A stretch of 20,000 bases of DNA from IMG/VR virus record IMGVR_UViG_3300021171_000137, one strand, 5' to 3'. This DNA comes from an uncultured virus (IMG/VR IMGVR_UViG_3300021171_000137). Taxonomy: Duplodnaviria > Heunggongvirae > Uroviricota > Caudoviricetes. Under the pieces are notes generated by a model. That model saw nothing but the letters and a program-made list of their open reading frames with translations. It ran no database searches and had not been told where the DNA came from. Position numbers and translations under genes: made by a program. Below, in pieces: positions 1 through 7,781 of this stretch. Numbering within the stretch: position 1 is the first letter of the stretch; every line of letters begins with the position of its first letter.

Positions 1-1
1 G

Positions 2-1318
2 TTTTTAATCGGCGCGGTGGGCCAGGAAATGGTATCGGCCAACCTCTTTGGCCTGTGGCGCAACGACTGGCAGGGCAACCAGGCGCTTTACGCCACGCCG
101 CGCACGAACAACTTGCTGCAATCGCAGGCCTTCGGCCAAACGCCGTGGGCCACTCTCGGAAGCGTCACGCTTGGCGCGACCGCCGGCACGGCGCCGGACG
201 GTTCGAACACGGCCACGCTTGTCACCCAAACGGCCAACGCCAGTTCGGTCTACCAGGATGTGGCCTCGATCGGCACCCAGGCCTGGACAGCGTCCGCGTA
301 CGTGAAGGGTGCAACCAGCACCGACATATCGCTCACGATCTTCTGGTTCACGGGCGGAACTACGCAGTCAGTGAACGTGGCGATGAACCCTGCAACGGGG
401 GGCCTGGTTGCCACCGGTTCGAACATCGCGACGCTCACCAACTATTCGATCACGGCACTTCCGAACGGCTGGTATCGCATCTCGATTTCAGGTGTGGGCA
501 CCGATCCGAATAACACCAAGGTGCGCTTCCAAATCTACGACTTCACCGGCGCGAACGGCAGTTACTACCTGTGGGGCGCCCAACTCGAGGTTGGCAATAG
601 GGCCACTTCCTACCTCGTCACGATCCTCACCACGATCACGCTGACTGACTACGTGTTCGATGCCCTTACGGGCCTCATCAAGTTCACTGTCACGCCGCTG
701 CCCAATTCGCAGCTCACCTGGGTTGGCAATTTCATCTTTGAACTCGGCGAGCTACCGGCCTGGAAAGCCAGCATCGCAAGCCAGTACGCCAACAGCCCTG
801 CATTGCTGGCTCTGATCCAGTCGTTCGAAGAATGCGTTGACCCGGCGGCCAACATCGAGGCCTTTTTCAACCTGATCTGGAATATCGACACGGCGCAGGG
901 CTACGGGCTGGACGTGTGGGGCCGCATCGTCGGGGTGACTCGCATCCTGAACATTCCGACCACGACCGCGAAGTATTTCGGATTCCAGGAAGCCAGCGGC
1001 GCGCATATCGAGGGCTTCAACAATGCGGTGTTCTTCAATGTGAACGTCGCCTCGAACTTCGCCATTTCCGATGCGATCTTCCGCACGCTGATTCTGGTCA
1101 AGGCCCTGATGAACATTTCGCGCACGGCGACGCCGACGTACAACAAGGCGCTGATGACGCTTTTTCCTGGGATCGGCAACTGCTACGTGATCGAAACAGG
1201 CCCAATGACGGCCCAGCTCACCTTTCCGGCGCCGCTCTCCGTTGTGCAGAAGGCGATCCTGCAACAAACGGGCGTGTTCTCGCCGCCCACCGGCGTGACA
1301 TTCACGATTGCCCCATAG
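2..1318 (+). CDS. Baseplate protein, DUF2612-like C-terminal domain with N-terminal beta-rich extension (probably 5'-truncated by the window)
   Basis: The frame is open from base 2. The C-terminal half has SQYANSP...WNIDTAQGYGLDVWGRIVGVTR...YFGF, typical of DUF2612 baseplate proteins. It lies directly upstream of the tail fibre. Confidence 0.8.
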   Translation, partial: FLIGAVGQEMVSANLFGLWRNDWQGNQALYATPRTNNLLQSQAFGQTPWATLGSVTLGATAGTAPDGSNTATLVTQTANASSVYQDVASIGTQAWTASAYVKGATSTDISLTIFWFTGGTTQSVNVAMNPATGGLVATGSNIATLTNYSITALPNGWYRISISGVGTDPNNTKVRFQIYDFTGANGSYYLWGAQLEVGNRATSYLVTILTTITLTDYVFDALTGLIKFTVTPLPNSQLTWVGNFIFELGELPAWKASIASQYANSPALLALIQSFEECVDPAANIEAFFNLIWNIDTAQGYGLDVWGRIVGVTRILNIPTTTAKYFGFQEASGAHIEGFNNAVFFNVNVASNFAISDAIFRTLILVKALMNISRTATPTYNKALMTLFPGIGNCYVIETGPMTAQLTFPAPLSVVQKAILQQTGVFSPPTGVTFTIAP

Positions 1319-1330
1319 GGACGCCAACCG

Positions 1331-2272
1331 ATGCTTGCCAGTCAGATTCCGACCTATTTTCCAGAGCCATTCGCGATCAACGCCGGAGCCGGGTACACGC
1401 GCCCGATCCCGAAGAATTCGCAAATCGGCCTCATCAACGGGGCCGCGAGCCTGAACGATGGTTTCCCGCCGTTGTGCTTTCAGCCGATCGAGAGCGGCGG
1501 CTTTGCACCGTTCGGTCAGGATTTCAACGGGTTGCTCGAGCAGATCACGGCCGGCTTGCAGTGGCTTCAGGCCGGGGGCCTCGCGCAGTACAACTCGACG
1601 CTTCAGACCGCGATCGGCGGCTACCCGAACGGCGCCGTGCTGATCAAGGCTTCCGGCAACGGGTTTTGGATTTCGACGGCCGACAACAACGTAACCGATC
1701 CGGACACGGGGGGCGCCGGCTGGAACGACCTACTGGCCATTTACGTAAAGAACGACGGCCACACCTACGGCATCAGCATCACCGGCAATGCAGCCACGGC
1801 CACCACGGCTAACACGGCGACCTCGGCGCTGACCGCGGGCTCAGCAACCACGGCCACCACGGCCACGACGGCCGCCAGCGCGACGGTTGCCGGCAGCGCA
1901 AGCAACTCGTCGACCCAGGCGGTTGGCACCAACAACACCACGATTGCCACGACGGCCTTCGTCAATCAGAACGCGTTCGGTACAGGCGGCCAGACCTGGG
2001 GGGACCAGACCGGCGCGCGCTCGGTGGGAGTGGCATACACGAATTCGACGGGACGGCCGATCTACGTATCGGTGACCACGCGGAATACGGGTCCAGGTAA
2101 CGGCGGCTCGATTTCTGCTCTGGTAAATGGCGTCACCATTTCGCAGGCCAGCAATTTCAACTTGAACTACCAGAACCACGTTTCTTTCATCGTGCCCCCT
2201 GGCGGCGTCTACCAGGTGAACAACATAGGAACCACAGCGCAAGCGTTGAATCTGTGGGCCGAATGCAGGTAA
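1331..2272 (+). CDS. Tail fibre protein
   Basis: The N-terminus (PFA..GAASLNDGFPP..GQDFNGLL..IGGYPNGAVL..STADNN.TDP) matches Bcep781/DUF2612-associated fibres as I recall them. It has a Thr/Ala-rich stalk, an IATTAFV motif and a C-terminal YTNSTGRPIYVSV...SFIVPPG..Y tip ending WAECR. Confidence 0.88.
   Translation: MLASQIPTYFPEPFAINAGAGYTRPIPKNSQIGLINGAASLNDGFPPLCFQPIESGGFAPFGQDFNGLLEQITAGLQWLQAGGLAQYNSTLQTAIGGYPNGAVLIKASGNGFWISTADNNVTDPDTGGAGWNDLLAIYVKNDGHTYGISITGNAATATTANTATSALTAGSATTATTATTAASATVAGSASNSSTQAVGTNNTTIATTAFVNQNAFGTGGQTWGDQTGARSVGVAYTNSTGRPIYVSVTTRNTGPGNGGSISALVNGVTISQASNFNLNYQNHVSFIVPPGGVYQVNNIGTTAQALNLWAECR
1783..1910 (+). repeat. Low-complexity (A-T-T/A-x-T) coding repeats in the fibre stalk
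   Basis: GNAATATTANTATSALTAGSATTATTATTAASATVAGSASNS; recurring ccacggccaccacgg in the DNA. Confidence 0.7.
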
Positions 2273-2282
2273 AAAGGACACC

Positions 2283-2582
2283 GTGATGCGCCACTTCCAA
2301 AATCCTGCCAATGGTCAGATTCACGGCTACGACGTCGACGGATCGCAGGACGATCTGATCGGCAAAGCCATCGATGCGCATTGGGAAGAAGTCCATGACG
2401 TTACCCAAGCGGCTGCGCCCGCGGGTGCGCCGCAGCTTCCCGGCGCCCACGACAGGATTCTCGAACTGGAAGCGAGCGTGACGCCGCGCCGGCTGCGCGA
2501 AGCGATCCTGACGGAACGAGGCCGCGACTGGCTGGTCAATATCTACGATCAGATCGAGGCTCTGAGAAAGCAGCTGTCATAA
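2283..2582 (+). CDS. Putative tail fibre assembly/chaperone protein
   Basis: AAGGA SD upstream; follows the fibre gene. The C-terminal ILELEAS.TPRRLREAIL...IEALRKQL helix is typical of fibre chaperones. Confidence 0.6.
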   Translation: MMRHFQNPANGQIHGYDVDGSQDDLIGKAIDAHWEEVHDVTQAAAPAGAPQLPGAHDRILELEASVTPRRLREAILTERGRDWLVNIYDQIEALRKQLS

Positions 2583-2837
2583 GTGAAGAAACGGAACAAA
2601 AACGCGCCTGTCTTCCGAATCGGCAACGCCCTGGTCGCTGTCGATCACTACACGTCGACTGAAACGCCAGGGCCTTTTTACATCTTCACCGTCACTAGGG
2701 ATGAGGACGGCATCACATTCCAGTACCGCTTCAATCCGAAGGCCGTACCAACTGGTTTAGACGGAGAAGTGCTGGCCCGTTACCTGCTCGAGCATGCCGC
2801 GGATGCCAAATTCATGCGTTACTGGAAAGAAGAATAG
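2583..2837 (+). CDS. Hypothetical protein (84 aa)
   Basis: GTG start abuts the previous TAA; protein-like composition. Confidence 0.55.
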   Translation: MKKRNKNAPVFRIGNALVAVDHYTSTETPGPFYIFTVTRDEDGITFQYRFNPKAVPTGLDGEVLARYLLEHAADAKFMRYWKEE

Positions 2838-3010
2838 CTGACCTCGGCAACAGCACCACGGATACGGGATTAAGGATTCGAATCCAGTATCCGCAGGGTT
2901 GAAAGTGCTCTAAACGAGTCCACCCGCGTATCAAACGCGGTTCGCTCTGGATCATCGGTGCGCGCAGTGGGCCGTTTTTCGAGCGATTAAGGCCATCGGG
3001 CATAGCCAGA

Positions 3011-3241
3011 ATGCGCCCCATGCCTGCAAACGATCCAATCTGGACCGCAAAGGTTCCGGCGGCGCCGCTTGATCCGGCCCCGCTTAAGCCGCTCGAGGCC
3101 GCAACGGCGTCGCGTGGCATCGGCGTGGTTCCGGTGCAGCCGACAATGCCGTACGCCACGCTACTCACCTTTGCCGCGGTGGTTTGCCTGCTCGGCGCCC
3201 TGGCCTGGTACATCCTTTATGTTCACGTGGCAGTCACCTAA
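3011..3241 (+). CDS. Small membrane protein with one C-terminal TM helix
   Basis: Pro-rich N-terminus followed by hydrophobic LLTFAAVVCLLGALAWYILYV; start uncertain (3011 or 3020). Confidence 0.55.
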   Translation: MRPMPANDPIWTAKVPAAPLDPAPLKPLEAATASRGIGVVPVQPTMPYATLLTFAAVVCLLGALAWYILYVHVAVT

Positions 3242-3437
3242 TGTTAGGCCCGCGCGCCCGGGAGTCTTTCCGGTGACGGTGCCGGTAGGCCCTTCGAACG
3301 TCCAATTGCGGCCCACGGAAGTGCGCTGGGCGCGCTGGACGGGCGAATACTGGTGCTGCTGGGGGACGACGCCAGAGCGGGCCGCTAGGGCCTCGTTTCC
3401 CGGACCGTCGGCTGGATACAGGTGGGCCAACCAATGA
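3219..3437 (+). CDS. Hypothetical phage protein (72 aa, Trp-rich)
   Basis: ATG 3219 gives MFTWQSPNVRPARPGVF...RWTGEYW. The stop overlaps the endolysin start (ATGA 3434-3437). Confidence 0.6.
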   Translation: MFTWQSPNVRPARPGVFPVTVPVGPSNVQLRPTEVRWARWTGEYWCCWGTTPERAARASFPGPSAGYRWANQ

Positions 3438-3895
3438 CACCGCAGGATTTCATCAGTCAGCTAACGCCGGCCGCGCAGTCATCGGCCGCTATCACCAAGA
3501 TCCCGGCCTCGTTCACGATCGCCGAAGCGGCGCTCGAATCGGGCTGGGGTGCCTCGCAGCTGGCGCGCGATGGCTTCAACCTGTTCGGTGTGAAGGCCGA
3601 TCCCTCCTGGACCGGCGACGTGCTTCAGATGAACACCCGCGAATTCCTGAACGGCCAGTGGGTGATGCAGCTTGCGAACTGGCGCAAGTATGGCGACTGG
3701 CTCGGAGCTATCCAGGATCACGCAGCCTTTCTGCTCGGTAACCCGCGCTACCAGGCGGCGTTCGAAACCACGAACGGCATCGACTTTGCCAGTGCCGTTG
3801 CGGCGGCCGGCTACGCCACCGATCCTCAGTACGCCAGCAAGATCGCCTCGATCATTCGTGCGCACGGCCTGCTCGGCCTGGACAGCGTCGCGTGA
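3434..3895 (+). CDS. Endolysin, glycoside hydrolase family 73 (FlgJ/glucosaminidase-like)
   Basis: AALESGWG (catalytic Glu), NLFGVKA, T.EF.NG and GYATDPQY (YxTD) motifs; no signal peptide visible. Confidence 0.93.
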   Translation: MTPQDFISQLTPAAQSSAAITKIPASFTIAEAALESGWGASQLARDGFNLFGVKADPSWTGDVLQMNTREFLNGQWVMQLANWRKYGDWLGAIQDHAAFLLGNPRYQAAFETTNGIDFASAVAAAGYATDPQYASKIASIIRAHGLLGLDSVA

Positions 3896-4197
3896 ACCCC
3901 GAAAGCGCCTGGTCGAAGTTCTGGCGCCACATCAGCACCGGCCCGGACAATCAGACCATCGAGCCGGCCAACGTGATGGCGATCGTGCACTGCCTTTTCA
4001 CGATGATGGTGGCCAGCACTGGCACGCTGATCTGGCTGTGGAAGGCCTGCAAGGCCTCTGGCGTGCCCGATCTACAGTCCTTTGGCATCGGCCTTAGCGC
4101 GGTGGGTGCGTCGGTCGCCGCGGCGATCTGGGCCCTCGGCAAGGCGCAGGGCGCGCGCGGCGACGCGGTTTACGCGGGCCGGGGGGACGGCAAATGA
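3892..4197 (+). CDS. Putative holin (2 predicted TM helices)
   Basis: Two hydrophobic segments, GTGA/ATGA coupling to both neighbours, located between endolysin and spanin genes. Confidence 0.7.
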   Translation: MNPESAWSKFWRHISTGPDNQTIEPANVMAIVHCLFTMMVASTGTLIWLWKACKASGVPDLQSFGIGLSAVGASVAAAIWALGKAQGARGDAVYAGRGDGK

Positions 4198-4619
4198 ACT
4201 TGCTCGACTACATCAAGATCGGCGTGCCCGCCGCGGTCGCGGTCATGCTGGGCGTGTGGCTGCTGGTTGCCAAGGGTGAGCTGGCAACGACGCAGGCGGC
4301 CCTCACAACGACGCAAGGCAAGCTCTCGACCAGCGAAGCCGATCTGGCGATCGCCAATGCGAACCTGACAACCGTTCGTGGGGCCCTCGTCGACGCCAAT
4401 CAGCGCACGCTGGATGCAGCGGCCGATGGCAAGAAAGCCGACGCCGCGGCCCAGCAAGAGGTTTCGGCCGCACGGGTCGCCAATCAAACGCTCGCGGTTC
4501 GCGTGGCCGCGCTCGAGGGGCAGGCCAGGGCGAGCGCGCCGCGCCCCGCTGGGCTGGACGCATGCCAGAACGCAGACAGAATCTTGACTGAGCAGATCGA
4601 TGCTGGCCCGGTTAAGTAA
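4194..4619 (+). CDS. i-spanin (Rz-like), pair 1
   Basis: N-terminal TM helix (IGVPAAVAVMLGVWLLVA), Ala-rich coiled coil and a single Cys near the C-terminus. The 3' end overlaps a lipoprotein gene. Confidence 0.8.
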   Translation: MNLLDYIKIGVPAAVAVMLGVWLLVAKGELATTQAALTTTQGKLSTSEADLAIANANLTTVRGALVDANQRTLDAAADGKKADAAAQQEVSAARVANQTLAVRVAALEGQARASAPRPAGLDACQNADRILTEQIDAGPVK

Positions 4620-4893
4620 ACTCACGGCGGGTATGTTTGCAGCCACCTTGGTGCAGGCTTGCAGCACTGCTGCCTCGCCACCACTTGCGCCCGTGATCGA
4701 GATTCAGAAGGAAGAAGTCCAGGTGCGCGTGCCGTGCCAGGTCGCTGACGTGCCGGCGGTGAAGTATCCGTTCGACGAAGCCACCAAAGACTCTCCAATC
4801 GACACGAAAGTGGAATTGCTCACTGCGGATCGGCTGGCGCGCGCCGAAACAGAGCGCGTGCTTCGCGCGGCGTTGGACGGTTGCAGGAAGTAA
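4600..4893 (+). CDS. o-spanin (Rz1-like lipoprotein), pair 1
   Basis: Signal peptide II MLARLSKLTAGMFAATLVQA-C, Pro-rich linker, V.VPC motif and C-terminal L.AALDGCRK. Overlaps the i-spanin by 20 nt. Confidence 0.82.
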   Translation: MLARLSKLTAGMFAATLVQACSTAASPPLAPVIEIQKEEVQVRVPCQVADVPAVKYPFDEATKDSPIDTKVELLTADRLARAETERVLRAALDGCRK

Positions 4894-4897
4894 TTCG

Positions 4898-4990
4898 ATG
4901 CCTCCAGAAGCCGGAGAAGTCATTGCGCTGATCCTTCTCGCAGCGCTGTTGTGGACCGTGTTCACGACCAAGTCGCGCAACGGCAAGTGA
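4898..4990 (+). CDS. 30-aa single-TM micropeptide (not in the ORF track)
   Basis: MPPEAGEVIALILLAALLWTVFTTKSRNGK*; AGGAAG SD about 7 nt upstream; acidic N-terminus, hydrophobic core, basic C-terminus. Confidence 0.55.
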   Translation: MPPEAGEVIALILLAALLWTVFTTKSRNGK

Positions 4991-5059
4991 CCCGTCGGCA
5001 CGTGCTGAATCATTGAGTTATTAGCGCGATCGCGGTATTGCAGGCTGAGCCATCATTGA

Positions 5060-5407
5060 ATGATGGGAGCCATGCGACATTTGCGCGAGGTCGACGTCGG
5101 CGAGAGCGAACGGCCGCCTCCGCCGCCGCGCGCGCCGTGGTCAATCATGAGTCTGAGCGTGCCGCTACAGACAGCGGTCGGCGTTCTGCTATGGACGGGC
5201 GCTGCGGTTGCATATATCGATCACAGATTCGGCAAGGTCGACGTGGTCGCTGCGCAGCAGGAAAAAGATCGCGAAAAGGCCGTAAGCGACAAGGAACTGA
5301 TCGCTAAGGATTTTCAATTGCGCGACCAGCGGATCGACGAGCTTAAGGGGCAAATGCAGTTAATGGAATGCAAGGTTGACGGCGGCAAGGCCTGCGGGGG
5401 CAGATGA
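5060..5407 (+). CDS. Single-TM membrane protein (holin/antiholin-like candidate)
   Basis: One TM segment (TAVGVLLWTGAAVAYI), charged coiled coil, C-terminal C-x7-C. ATGA-coupled to the next gene. Possible starts at 5060, 5063 and 5072. Confidence 0.6.
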   Translation: MMGAMRHLREVDVGESERPPPPPRAPWSIMSLSVPLQTAVGVLLWTGAAVAYIDHRFGKVDVVAAQQEKDREKAVSDKELIAKDFQLRDQRIDELKGQMQLMECKVDGGKACGGR

Positions 5408-5988
5408 TGAATGAGCAGATGGTGGACGATGAAGCCGCGCCGAAGCGCAAGCGCATTCACCCGCTTGCGTGGGTGACGCCCTGTCTTCTCGCGGCCGCGG
5501 TGTGCGTCAGCACGGGCTCGGTGATCACTTCGCGCTACGACAAAGCGGCCGCAATCAAGCTGGCAGAACAGGTCGCAAAAGACCGGAAACAGGATCGCGA
5601 AGACGCGGGCGCGCGCGAGGCGCACTTGAATGAATTACTCCAAACCGAGAGAAAAGAAAATGAGAAAGAGGCCCAGCTTCGCCAGCGCAACCACATGGCT
5701 TTTGCTCAGCACGCTGGCCGGGTGCGCAGCGCTCTCGAAGCCGACCTGTCCCGTAGTCGAACCGACAGCGACGCCTGTACCGTCCGAATTGCTCGAATCT
5801 CCGAGGACTACGGAGACGTCGACGACCTACTCCGAGAAAGTGTCCAACTTCTCGAAGAAGGTAAAGCAGAGGGCGCTCGCCTCGAAGCAGAAAACAAGCG
5901 CCTCGCCCGCATCGCCGCCGGCTGGCAGCAGCGCTACGCCCTCGAGCACGCCGAACGCATCACGGTGACCGCGAAGAAAGGCGGCTAG
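5404..5988 (+). CDS. i-spanin (Rz-like), pair 2
   Basis: Basic KRKR, then TM helix (LAWVTPCLLAAAVCVSTGSVI), then a long coiled coil with a Cys. Contains an embedded lipoprotein ORF. Confidence 0.72.
   Translation: MMNEQMVDDEAAPKRKRIHPLAWVTPCLLAAAVCVSTGSVITSRYDKAAAIKLAEQVAKDRKQDREDAGAREAHLNELLQTERKENEKEAQLRQRNHMAFAQHAGRVRSALEADLSRSRTDSDACTVRIARISEDYGDVDDLLRESVQLLEEGKAEGARLEAENKRLARIAAGWQQRYALEHAERITVTAKKGG
5660..5968 (+). CDS. Embedded o-spanin (Rz1-like lipoprotein), pair 2
   Basis: In the +1 frame, wholly inside 5404-5988: MRKRPSFASATTWLLLSTLAG-C with a canonical LAGC lipobox, then Pro-rich KPTCPVVEPTATPVPSELLESP. Confidence 0.72.
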   Translation: MRKRPSFASATTWLLLSTLAGCAALSKPTCPVVEPTATPVPSELLESPRTTETSTTYSEKVSNFSKKVKQRALASKQKTSASPASPPAGSSATPSSTPNASR

Positions 5989-6169
5989 GACGCGGTCGTT
6001 TCAGGCCCAGAAACCAATCCATTAGCCGCTCGAGCAGATAACGGCTGCCGTGATATGGCGCCGCTGATGCCAGCGCCACAATGCCCAGAGCCAGCAGGAA
6101 AAGCAGCGCGAACGGAAGGCATACCCACCAGTACCACGGCCGCGCGGGCAAGCTCGCCGGGTAAGCCAT
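5960..6169 (-). CDS. Small membrane protein (69 aa), last gene of the leftward operon
   Basis: ATG 6169 lies 2 nt after the previous stop: MAYPASLPARPWYWWVCLPFALLFLLALGIVALASAA... Confidence 0.6.
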   Translation of the reverse strand: MAYPASLPARPWYWWVCLPFALLFLLALGIVALASAAPYHGSRYLLERLMDWFLGLKRPRPSRLSSRSP

Positions 6170-6171
6170 CG

Positions 6172-6609
6172 CTATGACGGATTCTGCATAACGTTGATCA
6201 CCATGAGCGGCTGCACCACGTTGACCGCGATCGCGCGTTCGGCTCCGCGCTGTAGATTCTCCGTCCATACGGTGCACGTTTCCAAGCCGACCACGAATCC
6301 CAATTCTTCGGCCACCATCCAGACGGCGTATTGGTTCGGCGCCCTGCCCTTGCGGGTGGATGACATCGACATGTGACGGCAGGCGCCGATCGGGTGGCCG
6401 TGCTCGATCGAAAAGGTCACAAGGTACGTCATCGGCAGATCGATCGTCTGGGCGTCCATCTGAGCCATGTGCGCGCGCTTCCCGTCGGGTGTCTGAATGC
6501 GCTCGAACAGGCCCACCACATTGACCGGGTTTTCGGCTGCTAGGCGTCGCAGCTCGGCTAGGGCCGCCTTCTCGTGCTCGCCGATGATCAGCGCCGATCC
6601 GAAGCTCAC
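6172..6609 (-). CDS. Hypothetical phage protein
   Basis: GTGA overlap with the upstream gene at 6606-6609; VTFSIEHGHP..CRHMSMS motif. Confidence 0.7.
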   Translation of the reverse strand: MSFGSALIIGEHEKAALAELRRLAAENPVNVVGLFERIQTPDGKRAHMAQMDAQTIDLPMTYLVTFSIEHGHPIGACRHMSMSSTRKGRAPNQYAVWMVAEELGFVVGLETCTVWTENLQRGAERAIAVNVVQPLMVINVMQNPS

Positions 6610-6986
6610 GGCATCTTCTCCGGGAATGGCCACTTGCCCGCGGCGCGAAGCTCTTCGACGGTCGGATCACCGGGCCGAACAATCCCATCGCGGATCATCT
6701 TGTCGCGGACCTCCCGGACCAGTTCGGCGCCGGCTGGCGTTTCAAGCATCGCTCGATCTTCCTCACGACAGGCCTGTACCCGGATCAGCGGCCGGCTGTC
6801 GCCCTGGCATCTATTCCGCGGCAGACGGCGCGCTTCGTCTACTGCTTCGAGGAATTCCTGAAACAGCGCTTCGCTGTGCTGTTCGTAGCGTTCCGTGATC
6901 GCGCGGATCGCCGACTCGAACAGGGCCACCGACTCGGCGTCTTCGATCAGCTTGGCTTCTTCGGTGGGGGGCTTTCTTCGGCGCAT
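6606..6986 (-). CDS. Hypothetical protein
   Basis: Likely start MRRRKPP at 6986 with AGGAG upstream; helical composition. Confidence 0.6.
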   Translation of the reverse strand: MRRRKPPTEEAKLIEDAESVALFESAIRAITERYEQHSEALFQEFLEAVDEARRLPRNRCQGDSRPLIRVQACREEDRAMLETPAGAELVREVRDKMIRDGIVRPGDPTVEELRAAGKWPFPEKMP

Positions 6987-7159
6987 GCGTTTCGCTCCTG
7001 AGCGGCCTTCCTGATACGCGCCTGGCCGTGCCGGGCGCAGTAATTGCCCAATGGCTGATTCTGTAGGCCCATCACGGTGCCAGTCGCGGGAATTGTGCAC
7101 GCGGGATGACTGCAATTTCCCAGCTGCTTGAACCAGCGGGCTTCGTCAGGCTCTTTCAA
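6947..7159 (-). CDS. Hypothetical protein, possible Zn-binding (C-x4-C...C-x2-H)
   Basis: TTGA overlap with the upstream stop at 7156-7159; fills the gap in the operon. Confidence 0.5.
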   Translation of the reverse strand: MKEPDEARWFKQLGNCSHPACTIPATGTVMGLQNQPLGNYCARHGQARIRKAAQERNACAEESPPPKKPS

Positions 7160-7374
7160 ATGATCTGCCCGAACCGCATCGGCGGTGGCCAGCCGTAAGT
7201 TTCCGGATCGATGATGTTGATTTTCGCTCCGCAAGGCATTTTCACGTTTCGCGACTCACCGCCGCTAGGACCCAGCAACAGCTCGTCAGGCGCCGCCTTT
7301 TCGCCGCATATCGGACATTCTCCCCGCTCGAGCCGATCAAGCTCGGCTTCCGTCATGTCGCGAATCTGTCTCAT
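7156..7374 (-). CDS. Small zinc-ribbon-like protein
   Basis: CPICG...GPSGG.SRNVKMPCG; ATGA-coupled with GAGG SD. Confidence 0.65.
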   Translation of the reverse strand: MRQIRDMTEAELDRLERGECPICGEKAAPDELLLGPSGGESRNVKMPCGAKINIIDPETYGWPPPMRFGQII

Positions 7375-7781
7375 GTCTCGACCTCGCCAGCTCGAGCCCG
7401 ACGCCGCGGGGGCGGTGTCTTGTCGGGTCCTTCGACCTCGACGATCACGCGCCAGCGGTCGTTGCGTTCCTGGTCGTAGCTGAACACCAGGCGCGGATCG
7501 CCGTCATCGATTTTGAGCCAGTCGGCGATCCCGTCGACTACGTTTTTGCAGGCGGCGGGCAGATTGTCGTGACCGTCGAGTCGTGACGGCCCGGTGCGCG
7601 TCAGCCGAATCTGAATCGGACCCATCAAGTCCACCGCCGATAATGGGAAAGGATGCGCTTCGCGCATCCGCAAATACGTTTCGCGACGTTCACGCTTGGC
7701 AATCTTTCCTGCGGCTGCCCAATGCACGCGTTCGTTCAGTTTCGAATGCGTGCGCATTGGGATTACGACTCGGACTTGCAT
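7371..7781 (-). CDS. RusA-like Holliday junction resolvase
   Basis: LD.HDNL..ACKNVVDGIADWLKIDD acidic catalytic pattern; N-terminal S.LN...HW motif. Confidence 0.72.
   Translation of the reverse strand: MQVRVVIPMRTHSKLNERVHWAAAGKIAKRERRETYLRMREAHPFPLSAVDLMGPIQIRLTRTGPSRLDGHDNLPAACKNVVDGIADWLKIDDGDPRLVFSYDQERNDRWRVIVEVEGPDKTPPPRRRARAGEVET

Follow-up and report, generated by a model that had tools for sequence, protein, structure and literature searches.

Spanins are usually treated as terminal lysis genes that occur once per phage. In one of the closest described systems, the Rz/Rz1 pair of phage lambda, an N-in bitopic inner-membrane protein with two periplasmic helices and a hinge is combined with a proline-rich lipoprotein encoded in the +1 frame, and periplasmic cysteines are found in both partners. 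According to the study by Kongari et al. (2018, PMC6139136), the gene of the outer-membrane component (o-spanin) starts at 0.4-0.5 L and ends at 0.9-1 L in about 70% of the embedded spanins, L being the length of the outer gene. The same study counts 507 of 528 spanins with periplasmic cysteines, mentions o-spanins with deviant lipoboxes and gives 40 amino acids (aa) for mature Rz1. Here, we analyse 20,000 nucleotides (nt) of DNA from an uncultured soil phage (IMG/VR record IMGVR_UViG_3300021171_000137), referred to as the window, the lysis region of which carries two complete pairs of spanin-type genes, termed pair 1 and pair 2. The region is present in several soil metagenome runs.

A sequence-only reading of the window had described four open reading frames (ORFs) that form two complete pairs of different architecture and show no obvious similarity to each other. 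All four ORFs are present, the architectures are indeed overlapped (20 nt, pair 1) and embedded (+1 frame, pair 2), and BLASTP reveals no similarity between the two pairs. A third conserved gene at 5060-5407, which that reading had not included, is coupled to pair 2. The analysis confirms that both pairs are real genes and that pair 2 is under dual-frame selection.

Conservation and dual-frame selection in pair 2

The outer gene of pair 2 (5404..5988, plus strand) encodes a protein of 194 aa resembling an inner-membrane spanin component (i-spanin). A hydrophobic helix at residues 24-42, deduced from hydropathy, follows a KRKR sequence and gives the protein an N-in topology. The AlphaFold2 (AF2) model, built on a 24-row alignment (pLDDT 79.9), comprises a helix at residues 21-121, a break at 122-128, a second helix at 129-181 and a loose tail. 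Cys125, nearly invariant in the alignment of relatives (A1), is located at the helix break, and the C-terminal ERITVTAKK is conserved. The o-spanin-like lipoprotein of 102 aa (5660..5968, plus strand) is embedded in the +1 frame (5660-5404 = 256) and covers nt 257-565 of the 585 nt of the outer gene, corresponding to 0.44 L to 0.97 L. It starts with MRKRPSFASATTWLLLSTLAGC, its signal peptide ends in LAG-C with Ala at +2, and 11.8% of its residues are proline. A second cysteine is found at residue 30 in the window copy and at residue 29 or 30 in all 15 aligned embedded proteins.

An exhaustive phmmer search of 1.84 billion representatives with a cut-off of E <= 0.001 yielded 23 relatives of the outer protein, which have the N-terminal membrane helix, the near-invariant Cys125 and the C-terminal ERITVT in common. 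The DNA of these relatives was taken from viral, metagenome and genome collections. At each of 21 loci, a set that includes two cut by contig ends and some duplicates of a single contig, the corresponding stretch has an open +1 frame, which encodes a signal peptide ending in G-C. A repeat count over 23 loci found the embedded start codon, the signal peptide and the lipobox Cys at each of them, while identity of the outer protein ranges from 100% down to 32%. The embedded frame described in the sequence-only reading is hence open, with its lipobox Cys kept, in the homologues of 5404-5988 as well. Fifteen embedded proteins align without gaps and share the invariant residues M1, G21, C22, S26, P28, E43, L44, L45, S47 and P48, and a P-ELL-SPK motif is kept in the embedded lipoproteins of all 23 loci.

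The codon positions of the outer frame provide the second line of evidence. Over codons 1-85, the third position has an entropy of 1.275 bits, compared with 0.985 bits for the first and 0.983 bits for the second position. Inside the overlap (codons 86-150), third-position entropy is 0.752 bits and lies below that of the first position (0.802 bits); over codons 151-188 it amounts to 0.99 bits. The drop of the third position inside the overlap therefore indicates that the second frame is under selection, which is strongest over the signal peptide, the lipobox and the motif.

A chance origin of the embedded frame in GC-rich DNA, with only the 194-aa protein being real, has to be weighed here, as the window DNA has a GC content of 61%, long alternative-frame ORFs are common in it, and the +2 frame of the outer gene also contains open stretches of 50-70 aa. 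The signal peptide ends of both lipoproteins, LAG-C in pair 2 and LVQA-C in pair 1, agree with a PROSITE-like lipoprotein pattern. Tested against 100 first-order Markov shuffles of the 20-kb window, this pattern alone was not significant and no rarer than in shuffled sequence (4 ORFs in the window versus 2.06 +/- 1.4 in the shuffles). Because the lipobox pattern is weak and alternative-frame ORFs are abundant, the reality of both pairs rests on conservation in relatives. A chance frame is very unlikely: all 15 aligned proteins conserve, without gaps, the start codon, the h-region, the G-C lipobox and the motif, the frame is open at all 23 loci, and the third position has a lower entropy than the first in the overlap.

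Both pairs are also found together in relatives of the window phage. A 10.5-kb contig of a related strain covers positions 1-7633 of the window including both pairs, with 72 differences, and a 41-kb contig carries full-length relatives of both pair-1 proteins and of the outer pair-2 protein at 82-89% identity.

Pair 1 and its relatives

The i-spanin candidate of pair 1 (4194..4619, plus strand; 141 aa) has an N-terminal membrane helix (residues 7-25 by hydropathy) followed by a helical, Ala/Thr/Gln-rich periplasmic part with Cys124. Its AF2 model is mostly helical and of low confidence (pLDDT 55.4), its match to PHROG 214 'Rz-like spanin' is weak (E 0.045), and a full-length relative has 82% identity. 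The o-spanin, a lipoprotein of 97 aa (4600..4893, plus strand), starts with MLARLSKLTAGMFAATLVQAC, carries Ser at +2 of its lipobox and contains two periplasmic cysteines (46 and 95), both of which are kept in alignment A5. It matches PHROG 3580 (E 1.2e-8), a family labelled 'unknown function'.

By BLASTP, the pair-1 lipoprotein is related to gp034c of Caulobacter phage S2B, itself a lipoprotein (44% identity, E 5e-12), to orf33 of Pseudomonas phage D3 (E 3e-6) and to the 'outer membrane spanin component' of Xanthomonas phage Rb1 (E 2e-6). A tblastn search with gp034c found relatives in 81 cultured-phage records, 70 of them from Pseudomonas phages. A word-index search with the pair-1 proteins returned only 1-2 close relatives, and a scan of viral contigs with alignment A5 retrieved the window's own lineage only. 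The D3 and Rb1 proteins are 34-35% identical to the pair-1 lipoprotein and share the pattern VPC...ADR..R...E..L.AA..GC with it; two cysteines and a helical C-terminal pattern are common to all three. Their genes also occupy a similar place after the endolysin: orf33, annotated as hypothetical only, follows the endolysin orf31 and orf32 with 4-nt overlaps, and the Rb1 component comes after a DUF2570 protein downstream of the endolysin, the gene in between being of the membrane/helical kind in both phages. The inner-membrane partners, in contrast, show no significant similarity by BLASTP (D3 orf32) or only a short P.P.G.D.C match (Rb1 DUF2570 protein). Because of its position, its overlap and the kinship of its lipoprotein, pair 1 is, as judged from sequence, the cassette spanin of this phage, an overlapped pair of the D3-orf33 type and an ordinary member of a known family.

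In phage S2B (locus L004, 2072-3162), a separated spanin-like set is flanked by DNA polymerase and exonuclease genes. It consists of the two-helix gp038c, the 29-aa gp037c, the membrane/coiled-coil protein gp036c, gp035c and the lipoprotein gp034c. All are annotated as hypothetical save gp038c, the 'ABC transporter' label of which looks wrong. As a homologue of the pair-1 i-spanin, gp036c was rejected (BLASTP E 6.9), the likeness being architectural only. In the soil metatranscriptome run X16, a 261-nt contig lies on 4625-4885 within the pair-1 lipoprotein gene with 2 differences, and the other matches to the window are scraps of 18-32 nt; carry-over of DNA is possible, the X16 matches are no proof of transcription, and the lack of coverage over pair 2 carries no weight.

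orf115 and the phage contexts of pair 2

The third conserved gene, orf115 (5060..5407, plus strand), has 115 codons and encodes a small bitopic membrane protein, the tail of which is a coiled coil. The stop of orf115 and the pair-2 start at 5404 overlap by 4 nt. A homologue of orf115 is located directly upstream of the pair-2 gene at every phage locus that reaches far enough. The 11 members of alignment A8 share a cytoplasmic MG..LR.VDVD.GE start, a WSI motif, one membrane segment and the sequence Y...DA.RD...RDD.I.EL.RR. No Pfam, PHROG or NCBIfam family was found for orf115, and in the ESM Atlas it falls into viral hypothetical clusters only, apart from a DUF2730 lead at 0.81, which is below the useful range. 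We regard orf115 as a fixed element of these phage lysis regions. It may itself be a lysis gene; a holin-like protein and a regulator are among the possibilities.

Around phage lysis genes, the nested pair is found in no fewer than three arrangements, and at most phage loci reaching far enough the module of orf115 and pair 2 is located within about 1.5 kb of an endolysin gene. In the window, endolysin, holin-like gene, pair 1, a 167-nt gap, orf115 and pair 2 follow each other on one strand. A second arrangement is that of the lineage L006/L014/L036/L037/L038/L052-L057. Here, one strand carries, in this order, the genes for a tail fibre, a three-helix protein of 150 aa with a charged tail, a protein of 91 aa, a small conserved YWCCWG protein, a secreted protein of 145 aa and an endolysin, followed by a canonical Rz gene in which Rz1 is embedded. 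The module of orf115 and pair 2 occupies the other strand, inserted between the genes for the 91-aa protein and the YWCCWG protein. The endolysin of this lineage is either a VanY/M15 peptidase (PF02557) or a lysozyme which we take to be GH24-like from its motifs together with PHROG endolysin matches. In the third arrangement (L005/L007-L011), orf115 and pair 2 are followed by a small ORF, in L010 by a further ORF too, and by a glucosaminidase endolysin, where the contigs end. The last bases of L011 hold a gene start that resembles, by eye, the 150-aa three-helix protein of L037. Window pair 1, pair 2 and the canonical pair of a related phage show no mutual similarity by BLASTP. Pair 2 stands beside pair 1 in the window and beside Rz/Rz1 of the L006 type, and so accompanies at least two canonical spanin families that are unrelated to each other.

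As for the setting of the window, a 60-kb IMG/VR record judged 79% complete (G001) has 71% of the sampled words in common with it and encodes an identical pair-2 protein. On the plus strand, tail-fibre genes with PHROG matches precede the endolysin (3422..3895), which is of the glucosaminidase type (PF01832, E 6.3e-34; PHROG endolysin families down to E 1e-51). The next gene (3892..4197, plus strand) overlaps the endolysin stop by 4 nt at its start and encodes a 101-aa protein with two hydrophobic helices (segments at about residues 29-47 and 64-82 by hydropathy). This protein has no family match in Pfam, PHROG or NCBIfam, and its position suggests that it is the holin. Genes from about 5960 onward are on the minus strand and include those for a RecE-like exonuclease and a NinB-like protein. 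No match was obtained by blastn of window positions 3000-6200 against cultured phages, and scans for promoters and terminators in window 2200-7200 and L037 3400-7200 gave nothing above shuffles. The Pfam matches Anthrax_toxA, T7_gp14 and Arteri_Gl are all far under the cut-offs, typical of coiled coils, and spurious.

Several further elements were observed in these regions. A 16-nt palindrome (TAGCGCGATCGCGGTA region) at 5022-5037 falls within the 167-nt gap that precedes orf115 and may be an operator or have arisen by chance. A gene for a 69-aa membrane protein (5960-6169, minus strand; start MAYPASLPARPWYWWVCLPFALLFLLALGIVAL) runs towards pair 2 and shares 29 nt with its 3' end, and a W-rich membrane ORF in L006 (334-687, plus strand), similar to it by eye, converges on the canonical Rz/Rz1. 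The small protein with the sequence W.RWTGEYWCCWG...P.RA is encoded in the lysis region of every lineage examined, adjoining the endolysin or the orf115 module: in the window at 3219-3437 (plus; first listed as 3069-3437, the true start probably being 3219), in L006 at 2251-2538 (minus), in L037 at 5067-5354 (minus), in L012 at 3744-4046 (plus) and in L060 at about 4637-4843 (plus). The L037 copy has no Pfam family. Another protein, secreted, rich in Cys and about 125-145 aa long, has a lipobox-like signal (LTAC or VFAAC) and likewise no Pfam family; its gene is conserved between the YWCCWG gene and the endolysin or after pair 2 (L037 4639-5073, minus; L006 1823-2257, minus; L013 1639-2013, plus). 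L060 is the nearest longer relative of the L005/L011 lineage and is without pair 2. In this locus the orf115 homologue lies directly upstream of the endolysin, which is followed by a gene for a 179-aa protein with C-terminal hydrophobic helices (3910-4449, plus) that looks like a holin, and a second lysozyme-like gene is found on the other strand (5789-6199).

A probable accessory spanin, or possibly another envelope function

The nesting of pair 2 falls in the range that Kongari et al. (2018, PMC6139136) give as typical of embedded spanins, and both partners have periplasmic cysteines. The layout of lambda Rz/Rz1 described at the outset is matched by pair 2, with no significant similarity at the level of sequence or hidden Markov models. 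The two systems differ in further respects: the mature pair-2 lipoprotein has about 80 aa, compared with 40 aa for Rz1, an additional membrane gene is linked to pair 2 on its upstream side, the phage has another spanin besides, and pair 2 is also found alone in bacterial chromosomes. Below threshold, pair 2 matches PHROG 456 (E 0.0028) and LysB TIGR03495 (E 0.011), and PHROG 312 matches 3 of 24 members of the family (best 9.3e-5). Its nearest ESM Atlas clusters contain DUF2514 in 19-50% or Phage_lysis in 11% of their members, which is a lead only. A complex prediction for residues 45-194 of the outer protein (A1) and residues 23-102 of the mature lipoprotein (A4) gave a score of 0.25 with the mark set at 0.32 and counts neither way. 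Pair 2 looks like an embedded spanin in every measurable way, yet it comes from an unnamed sequence family.

Because its features fit a spanin, because its phage copies are located in lysis regions and because both pairs are kept in diverged relatives, an accessory spanin is the simplest reading of pair 2 for the phage copies. With modest confidence, we consider it probable that pair 2 acts as a lytic spanin, namely as a second, embedded and accessory one from a new sequence family. By analogy with lambda Rz/Rz1, the 194-aa protein would reside in the inner membrane with a two-helix periplasmic rod, and the embedded lipoprotein would receive its lipid at Cys22 and then be sorted to the outer membrane. 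Both products would bind each other across the periplasm and be fixed by disulfides (Cys125; Cys30 of the lipoprotein). After removal of the cell wall by the endolysin, collapse of the complex would fuse or break the outer membrane. In this scheme, lipidation and sorting of the lipoprotein, binding of the partners and lytic activity are inferred, as is any division of labour between the two pairs.

A more distant branch of the family, 32-39% identical to the window protein and 62-84% identical within itself, is found in bacteria, at 8 genome-collection loci on contigs of metagenome-assembled genomes (MAGs) titled Burkholderiaceae, Betaproteobacteria or Burkholderiales. A pair-2 match occurs in 8 of 232 genomes of one Burkholderiales family, and each of five genomes has a single copy; absence from the remaining genomes of this family is not firm, because many of them are incomplete. 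Both frames are intact in all bacterial copies, and none has an orf115 homologue upstream. The genes within 8 kb were sampled by 22 chosen MAG neighbours among 27 proteins scanned. They encode homoserine dehydrogenase, an AhpC/TSA peroxiredoxin, PhoH-PIN, SIR2, an MFS transporter and ribosomal proteins S18 and S6 in L027; XdhC, FKBP and TacA-GNAT and PIN toxin-antitoxin proteins in L029; DoxX, a trypsin-like peptidase and a beta-eliminating (threonine-aldolase-type) lyase in L030; a fatty-acid desaturase in L028; and an ATP-dependent DNA ligase in L031. Apart from the coding region, the bacterial copies share about 100-160 nt on the upstream side and no more than about 40 nt on the downstream side, the flanks beyond being unrelated. 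The conserved upstream stretch, for example at about 1355-1514 in L016 and about 7890-8000 in L027, contains a GCGCTACATCCGAACGGCTGACCCGC block, a AATGCGGTAGAAA block and a GGAAGGAA ribosome-binding site, and it may be a dedicated promoter or regulator site.

Several observations weigh against a lytic role of pair 2. Most bacterial copies have an LPG-C lipobox with Pro at -2, outside the usual consensus, and no phage gene, endolysin or holin was found among their 22 MAG neighbours scanned. No known spanin model is significant for pair 2, there is no Pfam match, and tblastn against 50,697 cultured-phage records gave no match with either pair-2 protein. Within the L006/L037 lineage, the holin, endolysin and Rz/Rz1 genes are on one strand and the module is on the other, and in L012 no endolysin is found within about 1.2 kb downstream of it. 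Four sibling loci possess the orf115 homologue without the nested pair (L054 3432-3680, minus; L058 5509-5808, minus; L059 5520-5807, minus; L060 2842-3201, plus), three of which (L054, L058 and L059) carry canonical Rz/Rz1. The gene orf115 thus occurs without the nested pair, which is an optional addition to it. Dispensability in siblings, opposite strand, solitary bacterial copies with an upstream region of their own and the lack of a known family argue against a purely lytic or necessary role.

These points bear on a possible, if rather unlikely, alternative, according to which pair 2, alone or together with orf115, forms a spanin-like complex that spans the envelope and is used outside lysis, for instance in superinfection exclusion, envelope tethering or remodelling, or vesicle release, as a phage accessory that some bacteria have kept. 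It is favoured by the solitary single copies in 8 of 232 genomes and at 8 genome-collection loci, by their cellular neighbourhood with both frames intact, by their common upstream region amid differing flanks, and by the opposite strand in one phage lineage and the absence from siblings. It is opposed by the location of the phage copies in lysis regions at most loci, by the fit of every measurable feature to embedded spanins and by the lack of a match to known exclusion or tethering families in Pfam, PHROG and NCBIfam. A role as a 'moron' expressed in lysogens was not adopted, because the search of the three related phage records G001, G234 and G235, the latter two judged complete, revealed neither a tyrosine integrase nor a resolvase. 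More doubtful is the reading that the nested unit is a self-contained mobile envelope-spanning device, the original or main job of which was not phage lysis, and that phages acquired it, coupled it to orf115 and carry it next to their usual spanin. Soil Burkholderiales would then keep it alone under its own control region for tethering or remodelling, vesicle release or anti-phage use. Type 10 secretion systems are cassettes with a holin and an endolysin. Such chromosomal lysis cassettes, which serve protein release, for example in Yersinia entomophaga, are a case of bacteria keeping spanin genes for their own use (PMC10847048). In contrast to these cassettes, the Burkholderiales copies of pair 2 are solitary, with neither holin nor endolysin among the neighbours scanned.

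Presence and absence in sibling phages, together with the swapping of endolysin types in these lineages (glucosaminidase, GH24-like lysozyme, VanY/M15), would also suit an intact but redundant leftover of mosaic recombination in lysis cassettes, without a separate role and on its way to loss. We consider this quite improbable, since neither frame is broken at any of the 23 loci, which span 32-100% identity, the constraint on third positions is particular to the overlap, the start codon and the lipobox Cys do not vary, and pair 2 is kept together with pair 1 in diverged relatives.

The suggestion of the sequence-only reading that the second pair was acquired independently agrees with the varied arrangements, the at least two canonical spanin partners, the absence from siblings and the solitary bacterial copies, and the second pair does look so acquired. 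The best explanation for orf115 and pair 2 as a whole is a portable accessory module that moves among phage lysis regions, in which pair 2 serves as the accessory spanin. No report of two complete two-component spanins in one phage was found in searches confined to open-access text and mostly to listings, and the supplementary tables of Kongari et al. may hold cases; the text of that paper (PMC6139136) makes no mention of two, second, multiple or redundant spanins. Elsewhere, two passages that speak of two spanins mean the subunits or genes of a single system. An unrelated complete second spanin-like pair as a portable module, its presence and absence among siblings and its solitary chromosomal form appear to be new.

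For spanins in general, the second, unrelated and conserved pair of this phage extends the one-per-phage picture by an optional module. If pair 2 is lytic, it would offer a natural system for asking why a phage needs two disruptors of the outer membrane, be it for differences between host envelopes, for timing or as a back-up, and it would add a spanin family that current annotation has missed. If it is not lytic, spanin architecture would have been reused for another envelope function, and membrane bridging and fusion could be tested outside lysis.

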